Made by a program: the position numbers and the translations under genes. The notes under the pieces are model-generated. The model was not told the origin of the DNA, ran no database searches, and saw only the letters and a program-made list of their open reading frames with translations. From Sphaerospermopsis sp. SIO1G1 (lineage in GTDB: Bacteria > Cyanobacteriota > Cyanobacteriia > Cyanobacteriales > Nostocaceae), in the NCBI GenBank assembly GCA_010672785.1, contig JAAHFX010000009.1:2690-66689 (forward strand): a DNA stretch of 64,000 nucleotides. The letters are read 5' to 3'. This document shows positions 10,674 to 27,405 of the stretch, piece after piece (positions within the stretch are counted from its first letter, which is position 1; each line of letters opens with the position of its first letter).

Positions 10674-10700
10674 CAGTTATCAGTTATCAGTTATCAGTTA
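10674..10700. repeat. STRR heptamer tract (CAGTTAT)n
   Basis: About 4 units directly after the ftsW stop codon. Confidence 0.85.
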
Positions 10701-10805
10701 CAGCAGATTTCTTTGCTATGAGGTACAAATTGTAATCATGGAACTCTTGTGGGGTGGGCATCTTGCCCGCCAATAGTGTACCTCATTACACCGGAAAATG
10801 CTGTA
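10699..10805 (+). mobile_element. 107-bp MITE-like repeat, family B (TACAGCA...TGCTGTA) with internal REP-like palindrome
   Basis: Same length and near-identical to 18217-18323 (direct) and 27299-27405 (inverted); core CTCTTGTGGGGTGGGCATCTTGCCCGCCAA. Confidence 0.85.
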
Positions 10806-10950
10806 TCTCATCATGAAATCTGGATATCTGCACTAAAGGCAAAAAAATTCCCAGAGTCTATGAGATTTATAAACCCATACATCTCCAGGAATTTATTCAG
10901 CAGGTTCAGATTTTAACTGACAGCTGAAAACTGATTGTTGAAATACTTAC

Positions 10951-13053
10951 CTAACCATCATAGGATTGATAGGTTAAATTTTCTGGAGCAGGAAAACTTG
11001 GTGTTGTGTGTCTTGAACTTCCGTTTCTGTGGTTTTCTAATTCCACCATATACTGAATCTCATGTGCAGCCACAGGAATATTTTCTTGGTTGAAACGTTC
11101 CTGAATCATCTGTATCAACTCATCATAAACATACCAAAAGTCTGCGTGAGTTGCCCATGCACCTACATACATGGTCATATAATATCCTTCATAATTCCAT
11201 AAAAATGTTGATGGTTTGGGATTTTCTAGAACTTTGGGATGAGATGTCAAAATTTCCATCAATAGGTTTCTGACTCTTGTCAAATCTTCTTCAAGTCCTA
11301 CTCGCAATAACAGACTAACCATGCGAATGTCACCGTGACTGAGATTTTCAATCATGCCGCTCCAAACAGTATTGTTAGGAATAACATACATCTGTCCAGT
11401 GAAGCCTGAAATTTTGGTACTAGCTAAAGAAATGGAATCTACATAACCCCAAATACCACCGAGTTTAACTTCATCACCAATATCAAAGGGTTTGTTAAAC
11501 ATAATCATCAAACCACTAGCAAAGTTACCCAAATTACTTTGCAAAGCGAATGCTAAGACGAAACTCGCACCCCCAACTAAAGCTAAGATTGGTCCCAGGC
11601 TAACTTCTAATGCTGTCAGTGCTAACAACACACCTACAACAACACCACCACGCTTGACAACCATCACTATGAACTGACGTAGTAGTTCAGAACCACCGTT
11701 CAATTGTTGCAGAGATTTATTAACAATATTCCCTAATGATTGAGAAACGAAGAAAGAAACACCAATAATTCCTACAAATTTACCGATGTTAATGGCCCAA
11801 CGTATACCACCTTCTTCCGATTGTAACCAACTCATAATCCTGACCCCTGCACCTTCAGTATCTTGTAAATCAATCGTAATGATACTGATGGCTTCAATAT
11901 ATTTTTTGTAGGAATCAGGAGTTCCACCTTTACGTTCTAGTTCATCAAGAACTACTTTGAATCTATCAACTAAGGCGGTTCTTTCAGATTGTAGTTCTGT
12001 AACTGTCGCTACGAGTTGATTTTTTAATTCAGCTTCTTCTTGAGCATTTTTATCTAAATTTTCTGCTGCTTGTTCTAATTTATCCCCTTGTTGCTGGATG
12101 CTTTCTTGATCTTTTAAGGAATCTACTGAACCAGCCACTTTTGTACTACCATCGCCATCAATTTGAGTATTATTCAGGGCTGCTTCTGTTTGATTTAATT
12201 CCTGAGAAGATTTTTCGGTTGTATCTTGTGTTTTCACACCTTCTACTTCGTCAACAATTGTCAGGAGATTTTTCTGTGCTGTTTCTAATTGTTGGGTAGC
12301 TGCTTCAAATTCTGCTGAATCAGGAACAGTTTCTTTTTGTTTGTTTTGTGCATCTTCAAAGTCTTTAATTGCTGCCTCTAATCTATCAATTTTTTGGGTA
12401 GCATTGTCATAAGCTAAAGAACCGGCTGTTAATTGTTCTCGCTGGCTTCTAAGCTTGTCTAAATCTACTTTTCCTCGGTCTAAGACTTCTGTTTCTTTTG
12501 CCTTGTCTATGGCATCCTTTAAGTTACTATCCTGTTGGATATCTTTTTTAGCTTCCTGGGCTGCTTGAATAGAATCTTGTGCCTTTTGTAAGTTATCCTT
12601 GGCTTCTTCAAATTTTTTAGTCGCCTCTTCATACTCTGAAGAACCAGGAGCAGCAGATTTCAGTTGTTCTTCAGCCTTACTGAGAGATTCCTGAGCATTT
12701 TTTAAAGCATCCGCAGCTTCTTGTTGTTTATTAATACTTTCGTTCTGTCGCTTAATAGCTATTTCTGCATCACTAACTTGTTGGACTTTGGTCTTGAGTA
12801 AAATTAACCAAGCTGCTGATTCATTTTCCAATTCCGCTAATGTTAGTGGCTTGAGTAACAATTCTAATTGATCAACTGGAACTGTTGGATCTTGAGTGGT
12901 GATCGCAAACTCAGGATTTCCACTAGTAGCAGGTTGAACTTTTTCGCTTGTTTCTGTTTCTGCCGCATTTTCTTGAGTTTTAGCTGGCATACTCCACAGT
13001 GTAAATAGGCACACTACACTGGCAATAACTACGGCACGTACTCGGTAGCGCAT
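10951..13053 (-). CDS. Large mechanosensitive channel (MscS family) with long periplasmic coiled-coil N-terminus
   Basis: Signal peptide, ~400 aa acidic helical region, then GASFVLAFALQSNLGNFASGLMIMFNKPFDIGDEV (MscS core). Confidence 0.88.
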   Translation of the reverse strand: MRYRVRAVVIASVVCLFTLWSMPAKTQENAAETETSEKVQPATSGNPEFAITTQDPTVPVDQLELLLKPLTLAELENESAAWLILLKTKVQQVSDAEIAIKRQNESINKQQEAADALKNAQESLSKAEEQLKSAAPGSSEYEEATKKFEEAKDNLQKAQDSIQAAQEAKKDIQQDSNLKDAIDKAKETEVLDRGKVDLDKLRSQREQLTAGSLAYDNATQKIDRLEAAIKDFEDAQNKQKETVPDSAEFEAATQQLETAQKNLLTIVDEVEGVKTQDTTEKSSQELNQTEAALNNTQIDGDGSTKVAGSVDSLKDQESIQQQGDKLEQAAENLDKNAQEEAELKNQLVATVTELQSERTALVDRFKVVLDELERKGGTPDSYKKYIEAISIITIDLQDTEGAGVRIMSWLQSEEGGIRWAINIGKFVGIIGVSFFVSQSLGNIVNKSLQQLNGGSELLRQFIVMVVKRGGVVVGVLLALTALEVSLGPILALVGGASFVLAFALQSNLGNFASGLMIMFNKPFDIGDEVKLGGIWGYVDSISLASTKISGFTGQMYVIPNNTVWSGMIENLSHGDIRMVSLLLRVGLEEDLTRVRNLLMEILTSHPKVLENPKPSTFLWNYEGYYMTMYVGAWATHADFWYVYDELIQMIQERFNQENIPVAAHEIQYMVELENHRNGSSRHTTPSFPAPENLTYQSYDG

Positions 13054-13305
13054 AAATGTTTTACCTATGAATAAAAGATGAGGACGGATTGATTAATTAA
13101 ACAAAATACTGTAGAGTACTTCATTGTTTTACATAGTTAATATTAATATAAGATTTGAGATAAATGAAAAATTACCTTAGATAAAACAAGATATCTTAAT
13201 TTTTCTTTAGCAAGTCAGCTATTTTAGTCAGTAAAACGCCAGCAGATAATTAAATTTCTCAAAAATGTACCAGTATGGTTTAATTGAGAGGATAAACATA
13301 AAAAT

Positions 13306-14694
13306 GTGCATTTTAAACATTTACAAAACTCTTATTACACCATGCAAACAATTCATAAGTCAAATCAAGCACTTGTAGACAAAGTTCCTAATCTTAGTAA
13401 TTGTATTTGTGAGAACTTAATTAATTATTTTCTAGAGTCTTGGGAAATTGAAGAAACACTACTCAAAAGTATAATAAACCAAAATACATTTTATCTCAAT
13501 CCTGATCCTTTAAGAAATAAACTAATCTTTTATCTGGGACATTCAGCAGTTTTCTATATCAATAAGTTAATTCGAGTTGGGTTATTAGAACAACCCATTC
13601 ATCCCCAGTTTGAAATATTATTTGAAATTGGAGTTGATCCAGAAACACCAGAAGAATTAGCAGCAGTAACAAAAGATATAGAATGGCCGGATGTAGATCA
13701 AGTTTGGCAATATCGAGAACAAGCCAAAAATGCAATTATAAAAATCATCAAAAATACCCCTTTAAATCTACCTATTCAAGCCCAACATCCCCTTTGGGCT
13801 TTATTAATGGCAATTGAACACAGTCGCATTCATTTTGAAACCTCTTCTATGTTGCTGCGACAATTACCTGTAGATAAATTAGAACGTCCTCATGGTTGGA
13901 ATTATGCCCCTACTCAAGGAAAAACTCCTGCAAATCCAATGATAGAAATTCCTGGTGGAGTGGTGAAATTAGGGAAAAGAACTGATGATTTAACCTTTGC
14001 TTGGGACATGGAATATGGTAGTTTGGAAGTGGAAGTAAAACCCTTTTTAGCTAGTCAAAATTTAATCACCAATGGGGAATTTTTAGAATTTGTGCAAGCT
14101 GGTGGTTATGAAAATTCCGACCATTGGGATGTGGAAGGGTGGAATTGGCAGCAGTTAAATAATGTACAACATCCGAAATTTTGGATACCTGAAAAGCCAG
14201 GTAATTATCGTTATCGTGCTACTTTTGATGAACTAGATTTACCTTTAGATTGGCCAGTAGAAGTCAATTTTTATGAAGCAATTGCCTACTGTTGTTGGCG
14301 GGGTAAAGGGACTCGGTTAATGACCGAAGCAGAATGGAATCAAGCCTTAATTTTTTCTGAGCAAAATTGTTTAGAAAATAGCTATAACCTCAATTTAAAA
14401 TATATTTCACCCTCCCCTGTAGGAATGTTGACAGATTCTCAAAAATCAGTAATTTCTGATTTACGGGGTAATGTTTGGGAATGGTTATCTAGTAAATTTT
14501 ATCCCTTACCAGGATTTGCACCTAATTATCTTTACGAAGATAATGCTCAACCTTTTTTTGATGATAAACATCAGATGATGTTGGGTGGTTCTTGGGCAAC
14601 TAATGGTACAATGGCTTTGCCTTGTTATAGAAATTGGTTTCGTCCTTTTTTCTATCAGCACGTTGGTTTTAGAATTGCTGAAAGTCTAGCCTAG
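13306..14694 (+). CDS. Short OvoA-type 5-histidylcysteine sulfoxide synthase homolog without a C-terminal methyltransferase; likely ergothioneine sulfoxide synthase
   Basis: LRNKLIFYLGHSAVFYINKL (OvoA-like DinB domain); iron motif H-x3-H-x-E (HSRIHFE); FGE-sulfatase domain (GNVWEW, GGSW, YRNWFRPFFYQHVGFR). A later start at ATG 13342 is likely. Confidence 0.85.
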   Translation: MHFKHLQNSYYTMQTIHKSNQALVDKVPNLSNCICENLINYFLESWEIEETLLKSIINQNTFYLNPDPLRNKLIFYLGHSAVFYINKLIRVGLLEQPIHPQFEILFEIGVDPETPEELAAVTKDIEWPDVDQVWQYREQAKNAIIKIIKNTPLNLPIQAQHPLWALLMAIEHSRIHFETSSMLLRQLPVDKLERPHGWNYAPTQGKTPANPMIEIPGGVVKLGKRTDDLTFAWDMEYGSLEVEVKPFLASQNLITNGEFLEFVQAGGYENSDHWDVEGWNWQQLNNVQHPKFWIPEKPGNYRYRATFDELDLPLDWPVEVNFYEAIAYCCWRGKGTRLMTEAEWNQALIFSEQNCLENSYNLNLKYISPSPVGMLTDSQKSVISDLRGNVWEWLSSKFYPLPGFAPNYLYEDNAQPFFDDKHQMMLGGSWATNGTMALPCYRNWFRPFFYQHVGFRIAESLA

Positions 14695-14797: not shown

Positions 14798-15787
14798 ATG
14801 ATTTCAAAAACATTGGAAGCAGAGAATTTAACGGTTTTAGATCATCACTATCATGAACTAAAAGATGAAGGGCAAGATGTAATTAAGGGTTTGAGTAATA
14901 GTCCTAAAACTCTATCTCCTAAGTATTTGTATGATGATCGAGGCTCTTTGTTGTTTGAAGAAATATGTGATTTACCAGAATATTATCCTACTCGTACAGA
15001 AGCAGGGATTTTAAAACAATATGCTGATGAAATTGCAGAAATTACAGGTTGTTGTGAGTTGATAGAATTAGGTAGTGGTAGTTCTACCAAAACCCAGTTT
15101 TTATTAGATGCTTATCAAAAGATTTCTGACTATTGTAAATATCTACCCATTGATGTTAGTGGTAGCATTCTTAAAACCAGTGTTTTACAGTTACAAGAGA
15201 AATATCCTGAATTTCAGGTTCATGGTTTATTAGGAACTTATGAACAGGCGTTAGTTCATTTAGAAACTAATTATTTGCAGTCACGGTTGTTATTTTTCTT
15301 GGGAAGTTCTTTAGGGAATTTTAATCCTCAAGAATGTGATCAGTTCTTATCTAAAGTTGCGCGTACTTTACATCCAGGAGATTACTTTTTATTGGGGATT
15401 GATTTACAGAAACCCAAGCATATTTTAGAAGCAGCTTACAACGATGCTCAAGGAGTAACCGCTGCTTTTAATTTGAATATGCTCTCCCATTTGAATTGGC
15501 GTTTTCAAGGTGATTTTGATCTCAAATTATTCAAACACCAGGCAATTTACAATGAAGTTGACAATCAAATCGAGATGTATCTATACTCACAAGGAAGTCA
15601 TTGGGTAAACATCAAAGACTTGAATTTAACAGTTTTCTTTGAAGCAGGAGAAAGTATTTTAACGGAAATCTCCCGGAAGTTTGATTTAACAAACATGAAA
15701 GAAAGTCTACAAAACAAGGGATTAAACCCGGTAAAAACTTGGACAGATGAAAAGGGATGGTTTGGTTTAATTCTTTGCCAAGCTTAA
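14798..15787 (+). CDS. egtD: L-histidine N(alpha)-methyltransferase
   Basis: LSPKYLYD, LPEYYPTRTE, ELGSGSSTKT, GSSLGNF, AYNDAQGVTAAFN, QIEMYL, ILTEISRKF; His-pocket residues intact. Confidence 0.93.
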   Translation: MISKTLEAENLTVLDHHYHELKDEGQDVIKGLSNSPKTLSPKYLYDDRGSLLFEEICDLPEYYPTRTEAGILKQYADEIAEITGCCELIELGSGSSTKTQFLLDAYQKISDYCKYLPIDVSGSILKTSVLQLQEKYPEFQVHGLLGTYEQALVHLETNYLQSRLLFFLGSSLGNFNPQECDQFLSKVARTLHPGDYFLLGIDLQKPKHILEAAYNDAQGVTAAFNLNMLSHLNWRFQGDFDLKLFKHQAIYNEVDNQIEMYLYSQGSHWVNIKDLNLTVFFEAGESILTEISRKFDLTNMKESLQNKGLNPVKTWTDEKGWFGLILCQA

Positions 15788-15828
15788 ATAAAAAACTGGT
15801 GTAATTAACAAGATCAAGAGGAGTAAAA

Positions 15829-16803
15829 ATGGCAAATATAGTTGGAGATAAAAAAGTTGTTCATAAACTAGAAGAAGACGTAAAAGCATTCTTTTTAGAG
15901 CAACTGAATGGCAATTTGTGGCCTTACTTGTATGGAACTCCTCAAAATGAAGATGATTTAGTTAAAGGTGGTATCCTATACAACGAAATGCTTGAAGGTG
16001 AACAAGACTATTACCTTTACAAGTATGAAGCAAAACTTTTCCAAAGCAAAGGAAATGTTCTGACTAACCTCATTGGCCCTGATGCAACATTTATTGAATT
16101 AGGCCCTGGTAGTGAACAAAGTATTCGTCTAAAAACTGTACCTTTACTTCGTTTTTGTCAAAACTTAAAGGGTTACCTAGGAATTGAAATTTCCCAATCT
16201 TTTTTGGATAAAGTTTTAGAAGTAATTAGTTCTGAACTACCTAATATCTATGTATCTGGTATTCAGAATGACTTTACCCAACTGGATAGCTTACCAGAAT
16301 TTGATAAACCTGTAATTTTGTTCAAAGGTAGTACCATTGCTAACTTGAGAAAAGACGAAGTTCCTGTTTTCATGTCTTACATCAAGGAATTAGTCGGTAA
16401 AACTCACTATGTACTCCTTGTACATGATGCAAACCAAGATGAAATTTCCTTAATGAAAGCTTACGATACTCCCAAAATGGCAGTATTTATGGAAAACATC
16501 ATGTGTCGTGTTCATCGTGATATGAATTTAGTTGATTTTGATCCACTGGCATTTCGTTATAAGCCTGAATGGCATTCAGAGTCTCATGATCTTAAGCACG
16601 TTCTCACTGCTACTAAATCACAAAAATTTGTGTTAGGAAATAAAACTGTAGAAATTACAGAAGGACAAAAATTCCACACTTTGAGTTCTTTCAAATATCC
16701 TACGGATGTCTTCCAAAAACTCATTAGTTCTGCTGGATATAAACCAGTAGATTTTGTTTTTGATGAGTCTGGGCGTATGGCTGCTCACATTTTTGAGGGA
16801 TAA
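15829..16803 (+). CDS. EgtD-family SAM-dependent methyltransferase, divergent paralog 1
   Basis: DYYL, FIELGPGS, FKGSTIANL, KAYD, HTLSSFKY align to the EgtD fold, but the side-chain pocket is changed. Confidence 0.82.
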   Translation: MANIVGDKKVVHKLEEDVKAFFLEQLNGNLWPYLYGTPQNEDDLVKGGILYNEMLEGEQDYYLYKYEAKLFQSKGNVLTNLIGPDATFIELGPGSEQSIRLKTVPLLRFCQNLKGYLGIEISQSFLDKVLEVISSELPNIYVSGIQNDFTQLDSLPEFDKPVILFKGSTIANLRKDEVPVFMSYIKELVGKTHYVLLVHDANQDEISLMKAYDTPKMAVFMENIMCRVHRDMNLVDFDPLAFRYKPEWHSESHDLKHVLTATKSQKFVLGNKTVEITEGQKFHTLSSFKYPTDVFQKLISSAGYKPVDFVFDESGRMAAHIFEG

Positions 16804-16881: not shown

Positions 16882-17091
16882 TATCAAGAAGTTATCTGGT
16901 AAAAATCAAAAGCTTAAATTAAAAAGTTTTCTGGAAAAATAGAGAAAGTATTTTCACTAAAATATCCCGAAAGTTTGATTGAAAAAAACATAGAAAAACA
17001 TCTGCAAATCAAGGTGTTAAAACCTGTCAAAATCTGGGCAGATGACAATGAATAATTTGATTGGATTTTTGACCAAGCTTAGATAAAAAAC
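16882..17091 (+). pseudogene. Degenerate copy of the egtD 3' end and its downstream spacer
   Basis: For example GAGAAAGTATTTTCAC...AAGTTTGATT...AAAACCTGTCAAAATCTGGGCAGATGA...CCAAGCTTAGATAAAAAAC parallels 15648-15798; contains stops and indels. Confidence 0.8.
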
Positions 17092-17237: not shown

Positions 17238-18212
17238 ATGACAAATGTAATTGGAGATAAAAAAGTTGTTCATAAACTAGAAGAAGATGCAAAAGCATTC
17301 TTTCTGGATCAACTTGATGGCAATTTGTGGCCTTACTTGTATGGAACTCCCGAAGATGAAAACGACTTAGTTACAGGAGGTATCTTATACAATGAAATAT
17401 TAACACAAGAACCAGATTATTATCTTTACAAATATGAAGCAGAACTTTTCCAAAATAAAGGTGATTTTCTGACTAATATAATTGGTTCGGATGCAACAAT
17501 CATAGAATTAGGCCCTGGTAGTGAACAAAGTGTCCGTTTAAAAACTATACCCTTACTTCGTTCTTTTATTAATTTAAAGGGTTATTTAGGAATTGAAATT
17601 TCTCAATCTTTCTTGGATAAAGCATTAGCAGTAATTAGTTCTGAACTACCTAATATCCATGTGTCTGGCATTCAAAATGACTTTACCCAACTAGAAAGCT
17701 TACCAGAATTTGATAAGCCTGTAATTTTGTTTAAAGGTAGTACAATTGGCAATTTAAGAAAAGATGAAGTTCAAGATTTCATGTCATATATCAAGAACTT
17801 AGTGGGTAAAACTCACTATGTACTCCTTGTACACGATGCAAATCAAGATGAAGTTTCCTTAATGAAAGCTTACAATACACCTAAAGTAGCAATGTTCGTT
17901 AAGAATATCATTTTTCGTTTTCATCGTGATATGAATTTAGTTGATCTTGATCCATCAGCATTTCGTTATCAATCAGAATGGCATTCAGAGTCTCATGATC
18001 TTAAACACATTCTCACTGCTACTAAATCACAAAAATTTGTGTTAGGAAATCAAACTGTAGAAATTAAAGAAGGACAAAAATTCCACACTTTGAGTTCTTT
18101 TAAATATCCCACTGATGTTTTCCAAAAACTCATTAGTTCTGCTGGATATAAACCAGTAGATTTTACTTTTGATGAGTCTGGGCGTATGGCTGCTCATATT
18201 TTTGAGGGCTAG
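17238..18212 (+). CDS. EgtD-family SAM-dependent methyltransferase, divergent paralog 2
   Basis: Same length (324 aa) and colinear with 15829-16803, with long identical blocks (e.g. GQKFHTLSSFKYPTDVFQKLISSAGYKPVDF). Confidence 0.82.
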   Translation: MTNVIGDKKVVHKLEEDAKAFFLDQLDGNLWPYLYGTPEDENDLVTGGILYNEILTQEPDYYLYKYEAELFQNKGDFLTNIIGSDATIIELGPGSEQSVRLKTIPLLRSFINLKGYLGIEISQSFLDKALAVISSELPNIHVSGIQNDFTQLESLPEFDKPVILFKGSTIGNLRKDEVQDFMSYIKNLVGKTHYVLLVHDANQDEVSLMKAYNTPKVAMFVKNIIFRFHRDMNLVDLDPSAFRYQSEWHSESHDLKHILTATKSQKFVLGNQTVEIKEGQKFHTLSSFKYPTDVFQKLISSAGYKPVDFTFDESGRMAAHIFEG

Positions 18213-18216
18213 GATT

Positions 18217-18323
18217 TACAGCAGATTTCATTCATAAGAGTTACAAATCATAATCATAAGACTCTTGTGGGGTGGGCATCTTGCCCGCCAATGATGTACC
18301 TCATGACACTGGAAAGTGCTGTA
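18217..18323 (+). mobile_element. 107-bp MITE-like repeat, family B
   Basis: Direct copy of 10699-10805, located 4 bp after the stop codon of paralog 2. Confidence 0.85.
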
Positions 18324-18858
18324 TTCAGTTGTTTTAACAGCAGGGAGAAAGAGGCAGGGTGCAGGGTGAAGGGTGAAATTAAGTTTGCGCTATTACTTAA
18401 TAAGACGCTATCGAGGTGAGAATATTACCCGAAAGCGTTTTAATTTATCACACAAGAAAGCGCTGTAATTAGGGAATAGACATCCAAAACTCTTGCCTGT
18501 TGCCTCTTAGTCTCTACGGAAACACTTTTTGCTGCAAACCCTAATTACTGATTAAATTAAGATTCCCAGTCACCAATCACCAGTCACTTTTTCTGCAAGC
18601 ACTAATTAATATGGATCTGATTTGAGAGCAATCGCCTCTCCAGAAAATCAAACAATAAAGTTAAAGCAAAATATTGAGAATGATAATCACGTTATGTTAG
18701 TTGGTTTTGTGGCACAAAGCCTTTCTTGTTATTCCATTGGCAAGTATTAGTGTAAATTATGGCTACACAGCGTGTTTTCTAGGAAGGTCAAATCATATCT
18801 AAATGACTTTAATGCTAGAATCATAAGTTGTTCTACCAAAGTCAAACCTAAATAAACA

Positions 18859-19974
18859 ATGGAATCCATATTTAACGCGCTGAATAGCTTAGATTATTCC
18901 AATGTTCCGATTGGGAAGATATCAGCTGTAATTGTAGTCATAACAGTCACACAAACATTAAGAAGATTTGTCTTAGGAATTATTGTTAAAACTATTGAAA
19001 AATTCACCAGTCAGACGGAAACGACACTGGACGATGAATTAATTGCCATTCTTAAACCAGCATTGAATTGGCTCATTTTTATTAGTGGATTTTGGATAGT
19101 TAAGGAAATTATTTCCGAGGATTTAGGTCCAAAACTGGCTGAAAGTATTGGTAAAGCACTGAACCTAATAGTGGTTTTTATTATCGCCTATGTTGTTTAC
19201 CGCTCTGCATCAATTTTAGGACAACTAATTGCTAACTTTGTTTTACACACGGAAACTGAACTTGATGAATTACTGAAGCCATTAATGCCTAAGATTTTTC
19301 AAGCCGTAGCAATTATTGTGATTGCAATTAAAACTAGTGAGATATTTTTAGGACAATCTGCGGGAGCTTTAGTTGGTTTACTCGGTGGTGCGGGGCTGAC
19401 AATAGGACTACTATTTAAAGATATTGTTTATGATTGGTTTTGTACAATTATTATCTATTCAGATAATCTCTACAGAGAAGGTGATTGGGTGGGAATATCA
19501 GGGGTAGATGGTTTTGTTGAAATCAAAAATATAGGCTTTAGAACTACCACTTTACACCTAGCTAAGTGGGGATCAATCGTAAAAATGCCCAATTCTCGGA
19601 TGATCACTGGAATTGTCGACAATTGGTCTCAGAATCCAGGAGAAGAACTCAGATGGGGTTTAGCAACAACTATCAGAATTGACGGTATTTCTGCCAAACA
19701 AACTGCTAGGATTTGTGATGCTATGGAAGAAATGCCAAAATCAATAGCAGGTTTTGATCCTAGTTGTCTAGTTCGCTTCAAGAAAATTGAAGGAAATGCC
19801 CGTGTTCTTGAAATTATGGCATTTGTGAATGATGATAATCTTTATTTGGCCGCAGAGAGAAACTTACATTTAGCCATCTTAGAACTTTTAGAACAAGAAG
19901 GTATAGACTCTCTCTATGTGGAGTTAATTACAGAAACAGGAAAGTATAATCCCAGTCCAAGTTTCAACAATTAA
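18859..19974 (+). CDS. Mechanosensitive ion channel, MscS family
   Basis: TM helices; GGAGLTIGLLFKD...YREGDWV...IGFRTT...PNS. Confidence 0.88.
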   Translation: MESIFNALNSLDYSNVPIGKISAVIVVITVTQTLRRFVLGIIVKTIEKFTSQTETTLDDELIAILKPALNWLIFISGFWIVKEIISEDLGPKLAESIGKALNLIVVFIIAYVVYRSASILGQLIANFVLHTETELDELLKPLMPKIFQAVAIIVIAIKTSEIFLGQSAGALVGLLGGAGLTIGLLFKDIVYDWFCTIIIYSDNLYREGDWVGISGVDGFVEIKNIGFRTTTLHLAKWGSIVKMPNSRMITGIVDNWSQNPGEELRWGLATTIRIDGISAKQTARICDAMEEMPKSIAGFDPSCLVRFKKIEGNARVLEIMAFVNDDNLYLAAERNLHLAILELLEQEGIDSLYVELITETGKYNPSPSFNN

Positions 19975-20004: not shown

Positions 20005-20610
20005 ATGAAAACCAAAAACACTACTACTAACATCAACACGATTTATCCCAATAAAATCTGGACAAAAGTATTACTAATTACAGGGATAATTTTTTGTACA
20101 TCTTCTATGTATTCTTCTCCCGTTCAAGCTCAATCAAAAATTGACCAAGGAATTAACAACGACAAAATTTTAATAGCCCAAACTCTAGGAGGAATCATCC
20201 GCAAAATTCCTATTTCTGAAGTTCCACTTCCAGCCATGTCAGCGGCAAAAACAGTCACAAATGCTCAGTTTAACCAAGCTAGAATTGAACTGCAATCAGA
20301 GGGTTCTTCGATCTATGTACTCAGAGGTAAAAATCAACAAGGTTTTGAAGTAGAAGTGCAAGTTTCTCCTAGCGGAACAATTATGCAAGTAGACGAACAA
20401 ATAGATCCCACTTCAGTACCAGAAATTGCTGTTAGATCTTTTAAAAGATGGGCCCCCAATGATCCTCTGTTAAGTATTTGGCGTAGTACCAGACTAGGGG
20501 AATTATACTACCAATTTGTGATTGAGGAATTTTGGTTAGAAGTCTCCACCGATGGAGAAAAAGTTATTATTTATGACAGAACAAAATTGACACAGAGTTT
20601 AGGCAGATGA
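20005..20610 (+). CDS. Secreted protein with PepSY-like (BLIP-like) repeats
   Basis: Signal peptide AQS; two units beginning ISEVPLPA... and PTSVPEIA..., each followed by Y-x-x-x and EV-x-V-S-x-x-G. Confidence 0.55.
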   Translation: MKTKNTTTNINTIYPNKIWTKVLLITGIIFCTSSMYSSPVQAQSKIDQGINNDKILIAQTLGGIIRKIPISEVPLPAMSAAKTVTNAQFNQARIELQSEGSSIYVLRGKNQQGFEVEVQVSPSGTIMQVDEQIDPTSVPEIAVRSFKRWAPNDPLLSIWRSTRLGELYYQFVIEEFWLEVSTDGEKVIIYDRTKLTQSLGR

Positions 20611-20862
20611 GGTAAATATCATCATTAGCTGATAACTAGTCATTTTAGACACAGATAATTTTAGGTTTGGGATAAAAGTTAAGGTAGGAAATAAAAAGCA
20701 AGATTCAAACCACAGCATTGATGGAAATCATCAAACTATTTCTACCAAAGCTGCTAAGTTCCAAACCTGAAATTTTCCGGATCAATAATCATCAAATTTA
20801 TAAAACATCACTAAATCTCCGTTAACTATTAAAAACAAAATTTAACATAAAATATATAAAAT

Positions 20863-22443
20863 ATGGACATTTTAATCATTCTAGCTGAAGTTTTTTTAGT
20901 CATTCTATTTTTCATCATCCTGAGATTAATGGTGGCTAGTTCATTTAAGATATTAACTAGATTATCAATACTCAAGGGTGACAATTTAAAAATAAAAATA
21001 TTACGCCGTAACATCACTGGATTGTTGTTGCTGATATGTTTATTATTATGTACTGCTATTATCGGTATTAATAGTTTTCTCATCTATCAGGGGGAAAATC
21101 TCCAAGAATATACAATCAACCTCATTAATCAGATTCCTACTGGATTTTGGTTTGAATTGGGAAAAGGAATTGCTCAATGCTTTGTTTTGGTATTTGTAGC
21201 ATTTCTAGCTGTCAAGTTGACAAAATATTTATTCAAAAAAGCTAGTAATAAAGCTAAGAGATTTACAGAAAGCATCGCAGATGATGAAAGTATTGATGCT
21301 TTTTTTACCGCCCTTAATACAAGAATGAAAGTAGGAATTTGGATATGGGTTGTGATTGCCTGTACCCAATTCTTGCGTTTACCCATAGTAATCTTAGAAT
21401 ATTTATACATTGGACTGCGAATTTATCTAATTATTGCGGTAGGATTACTAATACTTAAAGCAGTAGATGCAATTGTTGACACTATAGATGTTCTGAGTGT
21501 CAGATACTCCAGTCCTGATCAAATATTGAGATTTTATGATCCCCTCAAACATCTGATTCCATTTTTAAAAAGATGTTTAGAATTGGTAATTTATGTCTGC
21601 ATACTAACATTAGTAATTCAGCAGGTAAAACTAATAGCTAACTTAGCAGGTTTTGGAGTTAAAATTATCCAAATTATCGCTATTATTTTTATCAGTCGTG
21701 TTATTTTCCAAGTAATTTGTTTACTGATGGAAGAGTTTTTATTACGAGATAATAGTTTAACTGATACCCAAAGAAGTAGACGTTTAACTCTAATTCCTTT
21801 ATTCCGCAGTTTATTACAATATCTTACTTACTTTACGGCGGCGGTTTCCATTCTCTATATTCTTAATATTAATCCCACTCCAATTTTAGCCGGTGCTGGT
21901 ATTGTTGGTCTCGCTGTAGGTTTAGGAGCGCAAACACTAATTAATGATATGGTTTGTGGGTTTTTTATTTTGTTTGAAAACTATTACTTAGTAGGTGATT
22001 ATATTCAGACAGTGAAAGAAGAAAGAACATTAGAAGGCGTTGTGGAAGCAATAGAATTGAGAACAACTCGAATTAGACATCCCAATGGACAATTGTATAT
22101 TATCCGTAATGGAGAGATTGGCTCAATTACAAATTATTCTAAAGATTACATCTTTGCTGTAGTAGAACTTAATGTACCTCATGATTCTGATTTAGCTGCT
22201 ATAGCTCAAAAAATTGAAGCAATAGGTAAACAATTACAAGTGAATGATCCTAATATACTTGAACCTACTTTTGTAGATGGTATAGAAAGTATTGGTGAGT
22301 CTAACTTGTTATTGCGAACTTTGACAAAAATGAAACCAGGACAACATCTTCAAGTACAGCGTACTCTTCGGAAAATTTATATAGATACTTTTTTAGCAGA
22401 GGGAATTTTACTTTCTACAGCTAATGAAGATAGCAATGATTAA
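20863..22443 (+). CDS. Mechanosensitive ion channel, MscS family, with extended N-terminal membrane region
   Basis: LAGAGIVGLAVGLGAQTLINDMVCGFFILFENYYLVGDYI...LRTTRIR...IIRNG. Confidence 0.9.
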   Translation: MDILIILAEVFLVILFFIILRLMVASSFKILTRLSILKGDNLKIKILRRNITGLLLLICLLLCTAIIGINSFLIYQGENLQEYTINLINQIPTGFWFELGKGIAQCFVLVFVAFLAVKLTKYLFKKASNKAKRFTESIADDESIDAFFTALNTRMKVGIWIWVVIACTQFLRLPIVILEYLYIGLRIYLIIAVGLLILKAVDAIVDTIDVLSVRYSSPDQILRFYDPLKHLIPFLKRCLELVIYVCILTLVIQQVKLIANLAGFGVKIIQIIAIIFISRVIFQVICLLMEEFLLRDNSLTDTQRSRRLTLIPLFRSLLQYLTYFTAAVSILYILNINPTPILAGAGIVGLAVGLGAQTLINDMVCGFFILFENYYLVGDYIQTVKEERTLEGVVEAIELRTTRIRHPNGQLYIIRNGEIGSITNYSKDYIFAVVELNVPHDSDLAAIAQKIEAIGKQLQVNDPNILEPTFVDGIESIGESNLLLRTLTKMKPGQHLQVQRTLRKIYIDTFLAEGILLSTANEDSND

Positions 22444-22536: not shown

Positions 22537-25110
22537 ATGAAAAATTTTAACACAGTATCTACTAAATACTCAAAATTTATAACTGCTACTTTAGTCGGTG
22601 CAACAACTACTATTTTTACAGCTAATACTGCATTTGCTCAAGTATTGAGAGGTGCTGGTGATGGTTTTGTAGAACCATTGCTAGAAAGTTATCGCCAAGA
22701 ATATGAAAAAGAAACAGGTGAAAAATTCAAATATACTGCTGTTGGTAGCGGTGGAGGAATTAGATTTTTTATTAATGACTCTGTAGATTTTGCTGCTACT
22801 ACTTTAATTCCTAGCCCCATTGAAATCAATCAAATGAAAGATGGTGCATTAATGTTGCCAACAGGGGGCGGTAGTATATCTGTTATTTATAATTTGCAAG
22901 AAGTTAGTAGCACGGTGCAATTATCCCGTGAAAAATTAGCGAAAATATTCACAGGTGAAATCACAAATTGGCAACAGGTAAATCCTAGATTTCCGAATCT
23001 AGAAATTCAAGTAGTAACTTGTGCTAAAAATTGTAGCACCAATTTTATTCTTACCAAATATCTCAATAAAATTACTGGGGGAAAAATATTACCTAGTAGA
23101 AATCCAGAATGGAGTTTTCCGATTTTTTCAGAATTAACAGATGACAGTGCGATCGCTGGCGAAGTACGCAGAACCGATGGAGCAATTGGTTATGTACAAA
23201 CTAGTGTAGCAATGAGAGAAAATATTACGATTGCTAGTCTGGAAAATAAGAGTGGTAATTATGTTCAACCAACTTTAGCAGAAACAAGAAAAGCCTTAGC
23301 AAATGTCAAATTCAGTAGTGATTTTACCACCGAAGATATTCAAGATCCAGAAAGTGGTTATCCTTTGGTGAGTTTAACTTGGCTATTACTTCCTCAAAGG
23401 TATGATGATCCAGAAGTTCTCGCCAAAACCCAAAAATTATTAGGATGGATTTTTACCCAAGGACAACAATTAAATCAAAATTTAGGATATACAAAAGTTC
23501 CTGATGAAATTAATAAAAAAGCCATTGCAGCCATTAAAAATCAATTACAAGTTGGTTCTGTAGCAGGAGTTAGCGGCAACAATTTAAAATTAAATTATAT
23601 CGGTAATTTATATGATAATGCTCCCAGTAATGTCCGACCAATTGTTAATGTCAACAAATTAGTAGATGTGAGTCCTCAACATTGGGCTTATTCAGCATTG
23701 AATGATTTGGCTGAACAACATCAATGTTTGAGTGGTACTTCTCGCAATACTTTTTCTGGGAATAGATCATTAAGTCGCCATGAATTTGCATTTATGTTAC
23801 ATTCCTGTTTATGGCAAATTAGACTTTCCTTAGATGATTTAAGAAAAAATAAAATTGCTGATGAAGATGATTTAGCAGTTGTACAAAGATTACAAACAGA
23901 ATTTAGTCAAGAACTAGAACAAGTATCCCAGAGAGTAGATAACTTAGAATCAAAAACAGCCACAATTCAAGCCCAGCAATTTAGTACAACTACTGTTTTA
24001 AAAGGCAGAGTTGATTTTAATGCCATTAGTGGTTTTGGTGATCGCAAAGCAGTACCTCCTGGTACTAATAACGCTGAAAAATTAACAGCAAATCCCACCT
24101 TTTCTGGCAGAGCATCATTAACTCTAGATACCAGTTTTACAGGTAAAGATAAACTGCAAACTCAACTAGTTGCAGGGAATATTAATAACCTCAGTAGTGC
24201 GATCACAGGCACAGATATGACAAGGTTAATCGGTGCTACAAACACAGGTAATGATGTGATATTGGGAACAATATATTATCAATTTCCTGTAGGAGATAAA
24301 GGCATAATTGCGATCGCACCAGCAGCAGATTTTCCTACTCGTATTTTTCCTGCACTTAACCCAGTCAGTTCCATTTCTAACTTTGGTGCAGAAAGTCCCA
24401 TTTATTCCTTTGCATTTGGTAGTGGTGCAATCGGTTACTATCAATTTAGTGATCAATTAGCAGCAGGAATTAGTTATTTAAGTCTTTCGGGTAATGATCC
24501 CAGTGAAGGAGGATTATTTGGGGGACAATATACCCTATTAAGTCAAATAACTTATACCCCATCAGATCAGCTAGGTATTGCTTTTACCTATGGTAATTAT
24601 TATGCACCCAGACCAGGATCAAGTCTTAATGTAACTGGTAGTAAAGGTAGTGAATTTGGTCAATTACCATTTGGAGGAGATACACCTACTTCTTCCAATG
24701 CTTTTGGTTTACAACTAACCTATAAAATCACTGATAAATTAGTGTTGGGCGGTTGGACAAGCTATTTTAATACAGAAAGCCAAGCCACAGCTAATTTGAA
24801 TGGAGTTAACTTTGATGCTGGTGCTAATGCAGATATTTGGAGTTGGGCAGTCACAGCATCCTTAACAGATATAGCTAAATCAGGTAGTCAGTTAAGTTTT
24901 GTATTTGGAATGCCACCTAAAGTTACAAGCAATGATATCTTGCAACGACAGGATCAAGATACTTCCTTACATTTTGAATTATCTTATCGTTACCCATTAA
25001 CAGAAAGAATTAATCTTACCCCTGGATTTTTAATGATTACTAATCCAGAACATAATAACGCTAATGATACAATCTGGGTAGGATTATTGAGAACCTCATT
25101 TAGTTTTTGA
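22537..25110 (+). CDS. Fusion of a PstS-fold substrate-binding domain with an SLH domain and OprB-type (carbohydrate/iron-uptake) porin
   Basis: One signal peptide (TAFA/Q). Residues ~35-337 are PstS-like (GAG, VGSGGG, DGAIGYV, GYPLVSLTWLL). Then SLH-like DVSPQHWAYSALNDL...LSRHEFA, a coiled coil, QFSTTTVLKG and a beta-barrel ending in ...RTSFSF. Confidence 0.88.
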   Translation: MKNFNTVSTKYSKFITATLVGATTTIFTANTAFAQVLRGAGDGFVEPLLESYRQEYEKETGEKFKYTAVGSGGGIRFFINDSVDFAATTLIPSPIEINQMKDGALMLPTGGGSISVIYNLQEVSSTVQLSREKLAKIFTGEITNWQQVNPRFPNLEIQVVTCAKNCSTNFILTKYLNKITGGKILPSRNPEWSFPIFSELTDDSAIAGEVRRTDGAIGYVQTSVAMRENITIASLENKSGNYVQPTLAETRKALANVKFSSDFTTEDIQDPESGYPLVSLTWLLLPQRYDDPEVLAKTQKLLGWIFTQGQQLNQNLGYTKVPDEINKKAIAAIKNQLQVGSVAGVSGNNLKLNYIGNLYDNAPSNVRPIVNVNKLVDVSPQHWAYSALNDLAEQHQCLSGTSRNTFSGNRSLSRHEFAFMLHSCLWQIRLSLDDLRKNKIADEDDLAVVQRLQTEFSQELEQVSQRVDNLESKTATIQAQQFSTTTVLKGRVDFNAISGFGDRKAVPPGTNNAEKLTANPTFSGRASLTLDTSFTGKDKLQTQLVAGNINNLSSAITGTDMTRLIGATNTGNDVILGTIYYQFPVGDKGIIAIAPAADFPTRIFPALNPVSSISNFGAESPIYSFAFGSGAIGYYQFSDQLAAGISYLSLSGNDPSEGGLFGGQYTLLSQITYTPSDQLGIAFTYGNYYAPRPGSSLNVTGSKGSEFGQLPFGGDTPTSSNAFGLQLTYKITDKLVLGGWTSYFNTESQATANLNGVNFDAGANADIWSWAVTASLTDIAKSGSQLSFVFGMPPKVTSNDILQRQDQDTSLHFELSYRYPLTERINLTPGFLMITNPEHNNANDTIWVGLLRTSFSF

Positions 25111-25149
25111 TGATCCAGAAATTATAAATTATATATTTTACAAAGAATC

Positions 25150-25647
25150 ATGATGAGACCACAACCTATAACACCAAAACCAGGACAAGAATCTGTTTGG
25201 GACTATCCCCGTCCAGCAATTTTACAAGATACCGATAAGCACCTCAAAGTAATTTGTAATGGTATTGTTTTAGCCGAAACTACTAGAGCTAAAAGAGTAT
25301 TAGAAACCAGTCATCCACCTACTTATTATTTTCCACCAGAAGATATTAAAATAGAATATCTAATAGCCACACCTAGAAAGACTTTATGTGAATGGAAAGG
25401 TAGATGTCAGTATTATGATCTTTCCATAGAAGGCAAGTATATAAATACCGCAGCTTGGCGATATTTTGATGCCACTCCTGATTTTGTTCCCATTCAAGAA
25501 TATTATGGTTTGTATGCCAGTGTCATGGATGCTTGTTATGTAAATGATGAGTTAGTTATTCATCAAGCTGGCGATTTTTATGGTGGATGGATCACTGCGG
25601 ATATTGTTGGCCCATTTAAAGGTGAAGCTGGTACTTGGGGATGGTAA
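25150..25647 (+). CDS. DUF427 domain protein
   Basis: ESVWDYPRP, VLETSHPPTYYFP, CEWKG, FYGGWIT. Confidence 0.9.
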   Translation: MMRPQPITPKPGQESVWDYPRPAILQDTDKHLKVICNGIVLAETTRAKRVLETSHPPTYYFPPEDIKIEYLIATPRKTLCEWKGRCQYYDLSIEGKYINTAAWRYFDATPDFVPIQEYYGLYASVMDACYVNDELVIHQAGDFYGGWITADIVGPFKGEAGTWGW

Positions 25648-25742: not shown

Positions 25743-25830
25743 AGGACTTACGCAGAAGTTACGGAAGAATAAACCACGAAGGAAAGGATACGAAAATCAG
25801 AAAGTTGGAGAAATATTTTGCGTAAGTCCT
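25743..25830. mobile_element. MITE-like repeat, family A
   Basis: AGGACTTACGCA...TGCGTAAGTCCT termini. Confidence 0.8.
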
Positions 25831-25896
25831 ATTACTAATGTTAATCTAATCTACATGATCATAATTCACATTATTATATAGACAATAACTTAAATA

Positions 25897-27252
25897 ATGA
25901 AAATTTCAGTAGTTAAAATTGAGAATTTGACAGTTCATGAACATCATCTAGATATTCTCTATAGTGCTGATAAATTTAATTTTTCCACTAAGATTTTTTA
26001 TCATGATGTTTCTTTTTCTGGGTTAATTAGCAAATACTCTCAACCCTTTATCCAGAAAATTGCTGCCCATATAGCCTTATTTGAAGGGATGAAACTATGT
26101 TCTCTCTTCCCACAGTTTTATGATATTTCTAATATTGCTGAATATTTAGAACCCCCAGTTATAGACTTGTTTGTGCAAATATATCAAGGGGTATTTGGGC
26201 AACATTGGTATGAAAATAATATTACCGACTATCAACAACCAGAAATTATTTACTCCCAAGAATTAGGAGTAAGTCAACCTCTGGCAATTTTAGATGAGAA
26301 TGAAACTATTCTCGCTGGTTGTGGTGGTGGTAAAGATAGTATTGTTGCTATGAAAATGTTAGAAGCAGCAAACATTGATTTTGCTTCCATGCAGTATTCC
26401 CATAGCGTTTATGGAAAAGCTGATTTTCAGCATGAGTTAATATCTCAAGTTGTCGAAGATTTGCAACCAAATAATAAACATCAAATCTCTATTTTTGATG
26501 ATTTTACAGACTTTCCATTTCTGCAATTGTATTTTTCTCAAAATTCCGGTATTACTGCACCAGAAACACCAGTATCAATTTTTGAATCTTTGATTTTAAT
26601 GTTAGATAAAGGATATAAATATTTATGTTTAGCACATGAAAAAAGTGCAAACACTGGTAATTTATTTTGGGATGAAATCGGCAAAGAAGTGAATCATCAA
26701 TGGGGTAAAGGTTTAGAAGCAGAAGAGATTTTAGATCAATTTATTCAAAATCACCTAATAACTAACTTCAAATATTTTAGTATTTTACAACCAATTTACG
26801 ATTACCGCATTTTCCAAAACTTTAGTCAATATCCTGAATTTATAACCAAAACTCATTCATGTAATATCAAAAAACCCTGGTGCAAAAAATGTCCTAAATG
26901 TGCCTATGTTTGGTTAGGAATGATGGCATTTTCACAGCAAAACTTAGTCAATGAAGTTTTTGAAAATAACTTATTTGATGATGAAGATTTACTTCCTACC
27001 TTCCGCCAAATGGTAGGTTTAGGTGAACACACACCCTTTGAATGTATTGGTGAAATTGAAGAAAGTCGGTTATTGATGAAAAGATGTTTAGAAAGGGGTT
27101 TAACTGGGAAAGCTTTGGATATGTTTACTGAAGAGATTTTATCAAAAAGTAAAATTAATTGGCAGAAAATAGAAGATAAATATAATTACGTTTACGCAAC
27201 AGAACACGCTATTCCTGATTGGATATTTGAGAGAATTAAGGAACTGTTTTAA
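25897..27252 (+). CDS. MurL-like (UDP-MurNAc-L-Ala-L-Glu epimerase family) PP-loop protein
   Basis: GGGKDS PP-loop; HEKSA...EVNHQWGKG; YFSILQP; HSCN...WCKKCPKC; FENNLFDD; HTPFECIGE..ESR in the order found in MurL. Confidence 0.72.
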   Translation: MKISVVKIENLTVHEHHLDILYSADKFNFSTKIFYHDVSFSGLISKYSQPFIQKIAAHIALFEGMKLCSLFPQFYDISNIAEYLEPPVIDLFVQIYQGVFGQHWYENNITDYQQPEIIYSQELGVSQPLAILDENETILAGCGGGKDSIVAMKMLEAANIDFASMQYSHSVYGKADFQHELISQVVEDLQPNNKHQISIFDDFTDFPFLQLYFSQNSGITAPETPVSIFESLILMLDKGYKYLCLAHEKSANTGNLFWDEIGKEVNHQWGKGLEAEEILDQFIQNHLITNFKYFSILQPIYDYRIFQNFSQYPEFITKTHSCNIKKPWCKKCPKCAYVWLGMMAFSQQNLVNEVFENNLFDDEDLLPTFRQMVGLGEHTPFECIGEIEESRLLMKRCLERGLTGKALDMFTEEILSKSKINWQKIEDKYNYVYATEHAIPDWIFERIKELF

Positions 27253-27298
27253 ATCTCAATATCCTGATGCAGACAATTTCATTTGCTCTAATTCCAAT

Positions 27299-27405
27299 TA
27301 CAGCACTTTCCTGCGTCATGAGGTACATTGTTGGCGGACAAGATGCCCACCCCACAAGAGTTTCATAATTATGATTTGTACCTCATAGCAACGAAATCTG
27401 CTGTA
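27299..27405 (-). mobile_element. 107-bp MITE-like repeat, family B (inverted copy)
   Basis: Reverse complement matches 10699-10805 and 18217-18323. Confidence 0.85.

Follow-up and report, generated by a model that had tools for sequence, protein, structure and literature searches.

Candidate MscS-type efflux channels in a putative ergothioneine/hercynine cluster of filamentous cyanobacteria

Introduction

Ergothioneine is a widely studied antioxidant with few producers, and its uptake proceeds via OCTN1 in animals and EgtUV in bacteria. Channels of the MscS family release solutes upon hypo-osmotic down-shock, and MscCG (NCgl1221) of Corynebacterium glutamicum, which has an extra C-terminal transmembrane segment, is an MscS-type glutamate exporter. 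Here, we describe a block of genes from the cyanobacterium Sphaerospermopsis sp. SIO1G1 in which the genes for two enzymes of ergothioneine synthesis lie among those for predicted MscS-type channels, a porin-tethered binding protein and several accessory proteins. The block lies within a stretch of 64,000 nucleotides (nt) (GenBank assembly GCA_010672785.1, contig JAAHFX010000009.1, positions 2,690 to 66,689), hereafter the window, from whose first nucleotide coordinates are counted unless another locus is named.

According to a 2025 study, an ergothioneine exporter has yet to be identified in any organism, and mechanosensitive channels have been proposed as the release route (PMC12689799). Among the compounds that Microcoleus vaginatus releases into its medium are histidine betaine and mercaptohistidine betaine (PMC4595634), and the Microcoleus loci in the set of 80 loci described below carry the gene for one of our channels, MscS371, next to EgtD. 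OvoA clusters with EgtD in two cyanobacteria, Cylindrospermopsis and Microcystis, according to PMC8433421, which credits the description of a cyanobacterial OvoA able to act in ergothioneine synthesis to Liao and Seebeck (2017). More broadly, Abbott et al. (2026; PMC13674229) tabulated the genes within 5 kilobases (kb) of all non-haem-iron sulfoxide synthases, finding DUF427 near 5.7% of them, an OpuB-type ATP-binding cassette (ABC) ATPase near 13.6% and the corresponding permease near 5.4%.

We tentatively read the block as this strain's version of a conserved cyanobacterial cluster for the synthesis and trafficking of ergothioneine/hercynine, in which MscS-type channels may form the efflux path; it would then be an extended form of a known biosynthetic cluster. 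An initial annotation, made from the letters of the window and their open reading frames (ORFs), had instead proposed an osmotic-shock island that makes, releases and recaptures betaines.

Gene content and linkage

Eleven intact genes lie between the core genes FtsW and DUF423, according to the ORF list and to Pfam and NCBIfam family support, and the following form a conserved layer that recurs across several families, in dozens of species of filamentous cyanobacteria (lengths in amino acids, aa):

13306-14694, plus strand: short OvoA-type sulfoxide synthase, 462 aa (TIGR04344, 563 bits, cut-off 400)
14798-15787, plus strand: EgtD, histidine N-alpha-trimethyltransferase (TIGR03438, 411 bits, cut-off 291)
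18859-19974, plus strand: MscS371, predicted small MscS-family channel, 371 aa (PF00924, 37.9 bits)
20005-20610, plus strand: PepSY201, secreted PepSY-like/BLIP-like tandem-repeat protein by predicted fold, 201 aa
20863-22443, plus strand: MscS526, predicted MscS-family channel, 526 aa (PF00924, 55.5 bits, and PF21088)
22537-25110, plus strand: PBP_like_2 (PstS-like) domain, SLH/coiled-coil segment and SomB/OprB porin in one 857-aa ORF (PF12849, PF04966, NF033921)
25150-25647, plus strand: DUF427, beta-tent fold family (PF04248, 107 bits)
25897-27252, plus strand: MurL-like PP-loop (SGGKDS-type) protein (NF041275, 143 bits, cut-off 700)

All the genes named in the initial annotation are thus present as intact ORFs with family support, and the first MscS gene alone is on the minus strand, as had been stated. 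Most of its labels were upheld by Pfam and NCBIfam, with three corrections: the OvoA-like gene covers the N-terminal part only, the PepSY-like protein matches no family and the MurL-like protein is a distant relative.

Two sets of loci were compared. From 251 genomes drawn evenly from the order, 68 of which hold an OvoA-type orthologue of about 450 aa, some 20 kb were taken around 57 OvoA-type genes and around three MscS371 genes without an OvoA-type partner; this OvoA-anchored set comprised 67 loci in all, in which every ORF was clustered without prior labels. The MscS371-anchored set took one genome per species, giving 80 named loci with MscS371 orthologues of 57-79% identity, and neighbours were counted within 10 kb. 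The counts were as follows:

EgtD: 56 of 67 OvoA-type loci; 46 of 80 MscS371 loci
DUF427: 22 of 67 OvoA-type loci; 22 of 80 MscS371 loci, always on the same strand
MscS371: 18 of 67 OvoA-type loci
OvoA-type synthase: 39 of 80 MscS371 loci
MscS526: 11 of 67 OvoA-type loci; 28 of 80 MscS371 loci
MurL-like protein: 8 of 67 OvoA-type loci; 8 of 80 MscS371 loci
Permease-OpuAC fusion: 8 of 67 OvoA-type loci; 19 of 80 MscS371 loci
ABC ATPase: 8 of 67 OvoA-type loci
Radical S-adenosylmethionine (SAM) protein: 6 of 67 OvoA-type loci; 17 of 80 MscS371 loci
Fatty-acid-hydroxylase-like protein (FA_hydroxylase): 6 of 67 OvoA-type loci; 10 of 80 MscS371 loci
PepSY-like protein: 4 of 67 OvoA-type loci; 18 of 80 MscS371 loci
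DegT-methyltransferase fusion: 4 of 67 OvoA-type loci; 8 of 80 MscS371 loci
Binder/porin pair: 14 of 80 MscS371 loci

At least one ergothioneine gene (EgtD or OvoA-type) stands within 10 kb of MscS371 in 51 of the 80 loci; among the accessory genes, DUF427 is the one most often found near the sulfoxide synthase. Every one of the 46 EgtD and 39 OvoA-type genes shares the strand of MscS371, the median gaps being 200-330 nt, and EgtD directly adjoins the channel gene in 42 loci (median gap about 200 nt). At least 13 different orders of EgtD, the OvoA-type gene, MscS371 and MscS526 were found, among them EgtD-MscS371-OvoA in Nostoc, Microseira and Pelatocladus, OvoA-EgtD-MscS371-MscS526 in Anabaena, Trichormus and Sphaerospermopsis, MscS371-OvoA-MscS526 in Tychonema and MscS371-EgtD in Microcoleus-type metagenome-assembled genomes. 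The linkage spans Nostocaceae, Microcoleaceae-type, Floridaenema/Phormidium, Scytonema, Westiellopsis and other lineages, and is also found at other chromosomal sites. Microcoleus-type loci, where EgtD adjoins MscS371 with no synthase within 10 kb, give a hint that the link concerns the betaine part of the molecule.

Within the 251-genome sample, 15 genomes hold both an MscS371 orthologue (at least 58% identity) and an OvoA-type gene, and the two lie at most 5 kb apart in 12 of them, the other three being split over contigs and none clearly apart; by simple arithmetic, random placement in a 6-Mb genome would bring two genes within 10 kb of each other about 0.3% of the time. MscS371 paralogues in the same sample (at most 52% identity, including tandem arrays in two large genomes) never adjoin ergothioneine genes. 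Partner genes were found at none of 16 Nostocaceae EgtD loci without an OvoA-type synthase, 12 of which have an EgtB-type gene, and at three of four OvoA-type loci, while no EgtB-type gene was seen near an MscS371 orthologue in the 80 loci. The channel link is specific to the OvoA-type cluster.

The initial annotation had suggested that the block couples betaine synthesis with release and recapture, and had allowed that its genes might prove independent in relatives. Most of the block is linked to OvoA-type or EgtD genes there (MscS371, MscS526, the PepSY-like gene, the binder-porin, DUF427 and the MurL-like gene all recur beside them), and to that extent the coupling stands; it does not extend to the third channel gene, MscS700, or to the two EgtD-like methyltransferases, MT2a and MT2b, which lack this linkage.

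Gene order was also compared within the genus, where it runs as follows:

This genome (G000): FtsW, MscS700, OvoA-type, EgtD, MT2a, MT2b, MscS371, PepSY-like, MscS526, binder-porin, DUF427, MurL-like, DUF423
G001: FtsW, MscS700, OvoA-type, EgtD, one MT2, PepSY-like, binder-porin, DUF427, DUF423
G002: FtsW, OvoA-type, EgtD, MscS371, MscS526, DUF427, small nucleotidyltransferase, permease-OpuAC fusion, ABC ATPase, DUF423

Such gene-by-gene variation indicates that the block is built of units that come and go: MscS700; MT2; MscS371 with MscS526; the PepSY-like gene with the binder-porin; and either the MurL-like gene or an ABC importer. Sphaerospermopsis aphanizomenoides BCCUSP55 has the order FtsW, OvoA-type, EgtD, MscS371, PepSY-like, MscS526, binder, porin, radical SAM, DUF427, importer, and so differs from the window by the lack of MscS700 and MT2 and by the presence of the radical-SAM gene and the importer. 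Further families, all absent from the window, recur in the ergothioneine neighbourhoods of other cyanobacteria (among them locus L033, 15020-16549, and locus L024, 7970-9520), namely the radical-SAM protein of about 510 aa, a fatty-acid-hydroxylase-like membrane protein of about 290 aa, a DegT aminotransferase-methyltransferase fusion and a 2-oxoglutarate (2OG)-Fe(II) oxygenase.

The ergothioneine enzymes

The OvoA-type gene encodes the N-terminal synthase part only, its sole Pfam domain being FGE-sulfatase with no C-terminal methyltransferase, and it scores 210 bits with the EgtB model TIGR03440, below the cut-off of 360. It is the single such gene in this genome; full-length OvoA matches (780 aa) in the 251-genome sample are separate genes of 42-43% identity. 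An EgtB-like role is predicted for the short synthase from its sequence. EgtD starts 103 nt downstream and carries the canonical pocket motifs GVTAAFN, EMYL and LTEIS. Pfam searches of the block proteins, with no search of the whole genome, found no pyridoxal phosphate-dependent (C-S) lyase in the block.

EgtD-like genes of 37-39% identity were seen beside OvoA-type genes at two other loci, as a second copy next to canonical EgtD in one (L045, about 10058) and as the only EgtD-like gene detected in the other (L084, about 3228); these represent a divergent methyltransferase other than MT2.

The channels

The genome holds seven PF00924 genes, three of them inside 11.5 kb of this block, a grouping that exceeds what chance would give. 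All three exceed the PF00924 cut-off of 20.2 bits and have G/A-rich motifs visible in the third transmembrane helix (TM3), so that MscS700, MscS371 and MscS526 are predicted to be channels of the MscS family (Transporter Classification 1.A.23). No tblastn cross-match among them exceeds about 28% identity, and they are therefore not recent duplicates of each other. By sequence reading, the C-termini of MscS371 and MscS526 are hydrophilic, with no additional transmembrane segment of the MscCG type.

After its pore helix (aa 187-210), MscS371 has the invariant aromatic residues Y191, W193, F194, Y200, Y205 and W210. D188 and T196 presumably occupy the positions of the hinge glycines G113 and G121 of E. 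coli MscS.

The accessory genes

PepSY201 has no Pfam match, even at E values up to 1, and no NCBIfam match. Its AlphaFold model (pLDDT 74.6, core mostly 85-96) consists of a signal peptide followed by two alpha-beta4 repeats, and the top Foldseek matches are DUF2874/BLIP-like periplasmic proteins of Bacteroides (E 5e-5), the PepSY protein YpmB matching only at E 0.3. The model suggests a periplasmic PepSY/DUF2874/BLIP-like protein. Of the 14 MscS371 loci that hold the binder/porin pair, 13 have the PepSY-like gene as the pair's direct upstream neighbour.

The 857-aa ORF bears out the ligand-tethered porin of the initial annotation, in that a PBP_like_2 domain (aa about 35-340) and an SLH/coiled-coil/SomB-OprB porin part (aa about 370-857) are joined in a single protein. 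The porin part is a full-length match to NF033921, the SomB iron-uptake porin subfamily (441 bits, cut-off 100), and also matches PF04966 (135 bits). An alignment with E. coli PstS covers the whole of the binder domain (E 3e-34), and the domain scores below the cut-offs of the curated PstS models (182 and 135 bits against 205 and 339). At the positions that we take to be the PstS phosphate ligands (T10, S38, D56, R135, S139 and T141 in E. coli numbering), it has T10 replaced by G, D56 by T, R135 by C and S139 by C, keeping S38 and T141. With its phosphate ligands mostly lost, the domain is unlikely to be a phosphate-binding protein of the PstS type, and nothing in it points to betaine binding. 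The two cysteines (Cys162 and Cys166) are both present in 13 of 21 orthologues and both replaced in the other eight (N, G or R at the first position, S at the second), a both-or-neither pattern that marks the pair as co-varying.

A single ORF encodes both binder and porin in this genus, in Anabaena sp. UHCC 0451 and in several genomes of other families (926-1126 aa); most Nostoc, Floridaenema and Sphaerospermopsis genomes have them as two genes side by side. This repeated fusion and fission argues that the two act together, and the SLH-like segment and coiled coil that come after the binder domain would place the binder in the periplasm, beneath the porin. The MurL-like protein is a full-length match to the MurL model at a score that marks a distant relative and not a MurL equivalog; its gene usually comes directly after DUF427, and its conserved neighbours are DUF427 and the ergothioneine genes.

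The importer of relatives

In relatives, the importer comprises a permease fused to an OpuAC-type binding domain and an ATPase, a pair that adjoins DUF427 in 19 of the 80 MscS371 loci and there invariably occupies the opposite strand. In G002 (locus L012, 3493-6020), the ABC ATPase and the permease-OpuAC fusion lie between DUF427 and DUF423, in the place of the MurL-like gene. No orthologue is present in the SIO1G1 genome, where a whole-genome tblastn with the relatives' protein returned only a permease-only match of 32%. The recapture step of the initial annotation thus has a counterpart in relatives and none in this genome. The relatives' binding domain scores 166 bits with EgtUC structures and 239 bits, its best score, with choline-type OpuBC binders, and sequence score alone did not separate an ergothioneine-type from a choline-type ligand; the EgtU paper yielded no ready signature of residues by which to tell them apart.

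Lineage-specific genes and repeats

The remaining features of the interval and its flanks, including the copies of a miniature inverted-repeat transposable element (MITE), are these:

9472-10668, plus strand: FtsW, left core flank
10698-10806, no strand: MITE copy 1, 107-109 nt, from a repeat finder; left boundary in the initial annotation
10951-13053, minus strand: MscS700, predicted MscS-family channel, 700 aa (PF00924, 67.6 bits, and PF21082)
15829-16803, plus strand: MT2a, EgtD-fold methyltransferase (151 bits, under the EgtD cut-off of 291)
16888-17091, plus strand: decayed copy of the egtD 3' end (75% identity to 15594-15796)
17238-18212, plus strand: MT2b, tandem duplicate of MT2a (170 bits, under the same cut-off)
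18216-18324, no strand: MITE copy 2 (86% identity to copy 1)
27299-27405, no strand: MITE copy 3, inverted (89% complementary to copy 1); right boundary in the initial annotation
27440-27826, minus strand: DUF423, right core flank

MscS700 has a signal peptide and a long coiled-coil N-terminal domain. At this locus, and within the family, it occurs only in this genome and G001; homologues of 45-53% identity are scattered over other families, and none was found in about 140 ergothioneine or MscS371 loci. MT2a and MT2b share 84% amino-acid and 87% nucleotide identity with each other and 26% with EgtD, and MT2a is 92% identical to the single copy of G001. The MT2 clade was found in only two of 41 relatives. 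Its homologues are patchy (Roseofilum, Oscillatoria, Electrothrix, Desulfococcaceae), and those in Roseofilum, Electrothrix and a metagenomic cyanobacterium each stand by themselves in unrelated surroundings; a place for MT2 in the thiol pathway was rejected on this ground. One of these, a 53%-identical homologue in Candidatus Electrothrix gigas (locus L174, 8001-8969), sits within the dcw cluster between murD and a P-type ATPase.

Aligned to Mycobacterium smegmatis EgtD (4PIM), MT2b has E282 replaced by L, T213 by V and M252 by H and keeps Y56, N166 and S284, and MT2a shows the same three residues (V, H and L) at the matching positions of its own alignment. We take E282, T213 and M252 to be the imidazole contacts, and Y56, N166 and S284 to hold the alpha-amino acid part. 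As judged from these residues, the MT2 pocket is not of the histidine type. Since their homologues stand alone, the MT2 enzymes would offer a one-enzyme route and probably make a different amino-acid betaine on their own, the predicted substrate being other than histidine and probably aromatic or hydrophobic. The MT2 duplication is recent: the number of synonymous substitutions per site (dS) between the two copies is 0.43, below the 0.58 to the G001 copy. The decayed egtD 3' end (its last ~200 nt) upstream of MT2b indicates that the duplicated unit took in the egtD tail, and the ratio of non-synonymous to synonymous substitution (dN/dS; 0.195 for MT2b against MT2a, 0.08-0.20 across comparisons) that both copies are maintained. 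MscS700, MT2a and MT2b are later, lineage-specific additions to the locus, and the initial annotation's inclusion of the third MscS and the two methyltransferases as partners is not supported, given that they occur at the locus only in this genus and that MT2 homologues have no conserved context.

The ends drawn by the initial annotation, 10699 and 27405, are arms of a 107-nt inverted repeat and not gene ends. The repeat is a common MITE of intergenic DNA with 217 blastn matches in the 5.19-Mb genome, of which 115 reach 90 nt or more (near full length), and three copies lie in the interval. Block GC content (0.33-0.37) equals that of the flanks, and in other genera, too, the core genes are found between FtsW and DUF423. 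A MITE-bounded mobile island or composite transposon was rejected on these three grounds, and with it the word 'island' in its mobile sense.

An Rfam scan of the whole window gave no matches, and hence no riboswitch to account for the intergenic gaps, while promoter and terminator scans gave counts at or below shuffle expectation and were uninformative. A look for public sequencing runs that could bear on co-transcription turned up none. An 84-aa minus-strand ORF (20829-21083) that overlaps the MscS526 start is of low complexity and probably spurious.

Discussion

The reading that we favour, with slightly more doubt than belief, is that of a conserved cluster for ergothioneine/hercynine synthesis and trafficking. 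EgtD, of an established family, would trimethylate histidine to hercynine, and the short OvoA-type sulfoxide synthase, likewise of an established family, would attach the cysteine sulfur; the block itself encodes no C-S lyase. MscS371 and MscS526 may form the betaine's exit from the cytoplasm, opening either on membrane tension (a hypo-osmotic shift or rewetting) or as dedicated efflux channels in the manner of MscCG. Between periplasm and outside, the compound or else a partner ligand could be handled by the PepSY-like protein and the porin-tethered PstS-like binder; DUF427 and the MurL-like PP-loop enzyme could modify or recycle the compound, and in many relatives the quaternary-amine ABC importer missing here would provide re-uptake. 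The alternation of fused and split binder and porin genes between lineages counts for this reading.

Other observations weigh against it. Its support comes from gene neighbourhood throughout. Channels stand at only about a quarter of OvoA-type loci and are therefore not needed for synthesis; moreover, 29 of the 80 MscS371 loci have neither EgtD nor an OvoA-type gene and 22 lack these and MscS526 as well, some loci in both counts being short contigs. Floridaenema fluviatile keeps accessory genes without an OvoA-type gene, and the recurring radical-SAM, FA-hydroxylase-like, DegT-methyltransferase and 2OG-oxygenase genes suggest that the cargo may be a modified product. Selectivity is generally lacking in MscS channels, and the ergothioneine levels reported for cyanobacteria are low for an osmolyte. 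A stronger version, which we regard as unlikely, would make MscS371 and MscS526 dedicated ergothioneine/hercynine efflux channels that, with the PepSY-like protein, the binder-porin and the relatives' importer, form an envelope-spanning cycle of release, capture and re-uptake, ergothioneine being used outside the cytoplasm. If true, they would be the first known ergothioneine exporters, and the compound a periplasmic or extracellular antioxidant or metal shuttle in filamentous cyanobacteria.

The cluster could instead make and export a modified thiohistidine or betaine natural product that the MurL-like protein, DUF427 and the relatives' extra enzymes tailor and that the channels, the PepSY-like protein and the binder-porin secrete or sense. 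Tailoring-type enzymes do recur in the 80 loci (radical SAM in 17, FA_hydroxylase in 10, DegT-methyltransferase in 8, MurL-like in 8), the accessory set of F. fluviatile persists with neither the OvoA-type gene nor EgtD nearby, and sulfoxide synthases feed further natural products (PMC13674229). Yet DUF427 and the MurL-like protein are the window's only possible tailoring enzymes and many loci hold just EgtD, the OvoA-type gene and MscS371, and we consider this account unlikely. Less probable again is the osmotic cycle of the initial annotation, in which betaines accumulate at high salinity, leave through three MscS channels on down-shock and are recaptured. Ergothioneine and hercynine are indeed betaines, MscS channels do release solutes on down-shock and a quaternary-amine ABC importer is linked in relatives; in engineered Corynebacterium, osmotic pressure raised ergothioneine titres, although the same study saw no growth benefit under osmotic stress (PMC12689799). 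The importer, however, is missing from this genome, conserved partnership does not extend to the third MscS or the extra methyltransferases, and the salinity rationale finds no echo in the names of the 80 carrier species, most of them cyanobacteria of freshwater, benthic or soil habitats (such as Dolichospermum, Anabaena, Nostoc, Microcoleus, Tychonema, Planktothrix, Raphidiopsis). We rate the osmotic framing as improbable because its carriers are largely from freshwater and soil and two of the components that it names joined the locus recently.

A further reading is a metal or redox shuttle in the periplasm or outside the cell, in which ergothioneine, once exported, would quench oxidants or else chelate or reduce a metal such as Cu or Fe, and the binder-porin with its Cys pair and the relatives' importer would retrieve the complex or the oxidised form. 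In its favour are the SomB iron-uptake relationship of the porin part and the two co-varying cysteines at cleft positions where phosphate ligands have been lost. Its logic of synthesis, export, capture and re-import is akin to that of metallophore systems, and 2:1 ergothioneine complexes with Cu2+ and Fe2+ are cited in 10.1101/2022.05.02.490363. The block nevertheless contains no metal-responsive element or regulator, the Cys pair is missing from many orthologues and the reading is purely inferential; we think it highly unlikely. To the same low degree we credit the view that there is no shared function, the FtsW-DUF423 interval being a hot spot that collects accessory genes and co-occurrence reflecting shared ancestry and repeated insertion. 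The interval does differ gene by gene within one genus, contains three MITE copies and has clearly received MscS700 and MT2 recently; against this, the same gene families stand side by side in distant taxonomic families, where they occupy different chromosomal sites and share one strand through many changes of order, and the binder-porin fusion recurs.

On the favoured reading, MscS371 and MscS526 would be the first concrete candidates for ergothioneine exporters, and a channel subfamily kept beside biosynthetic genes through rearrangements offers direct, cheap candidates of this kind. If borne out, the reading would be useful for fermentation strains and would help to explain the release of histidine betaines by soil and freshwater cyanobacteria. 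The recurrent fusion of a re-purposed PstS-fold binder to a porin is an unusual architecture in its own right and would be informative on how periplasmic binders and porins cooperate.

Comparison with known systems

The locus shares DUF427 and, in relatives, the OpuB-type ABC genes with the sulfoxide synthase neighbours tabulated by Abbott et al. (PMC13674229), and differs in the mechanosensitive channels, porin, PstS-like binder and PepSY-like protein, whose links are cyanobacterial and have no entry in that table. Full-text literature searches brought up no report of MscS genes linked with ergothioneine clusters; the MscS and porin linkage thus appears to be new, the linkage to DUF427 and the ABC importer having already been published. 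As in the described cyanobacterial pathway, an OvoA-related synthase lies directly upstream of canonical EgtD, but that pathway consists of the two enzymes only, whereas here the pair stands amid channels, a PepSY-like protein, the binder-porin, DUF427 and the MurL-like protein.

The relatives' importer resembles EgtUV of Streptococcus pneumoniae and Helicobacter pylori as a permease-binding-domain fusion with an ATPase, here by DUF427, although the best structural relatives of its binding domain are choline-type OpuBC binders and the window's genome has no orthologue. E. coli PstS can be aligned with the N-terminal domain of the 857-aa protein over its full length, but the equivalents of Asp56, Arg135, Thr10 and Ser139 are replaced and no PstCAB genes lie nearby. 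The C-terminal part is a full SomB-type porin like the cyanobacterial SLH-OprB/SomB porins, with the difference that a binder is covalently tethered to it or encoded immediately upstream. MscCG, finally, is the precedent for an MscS-family channel as the efflux path of a specific metabolite and not merely an emergency valve, a likeness that we propose for MscS371 and MscS526; where MscCG has its extra C-terminal transmembrane segment, these two have hydrophilic tails, as read from their sequences alone.

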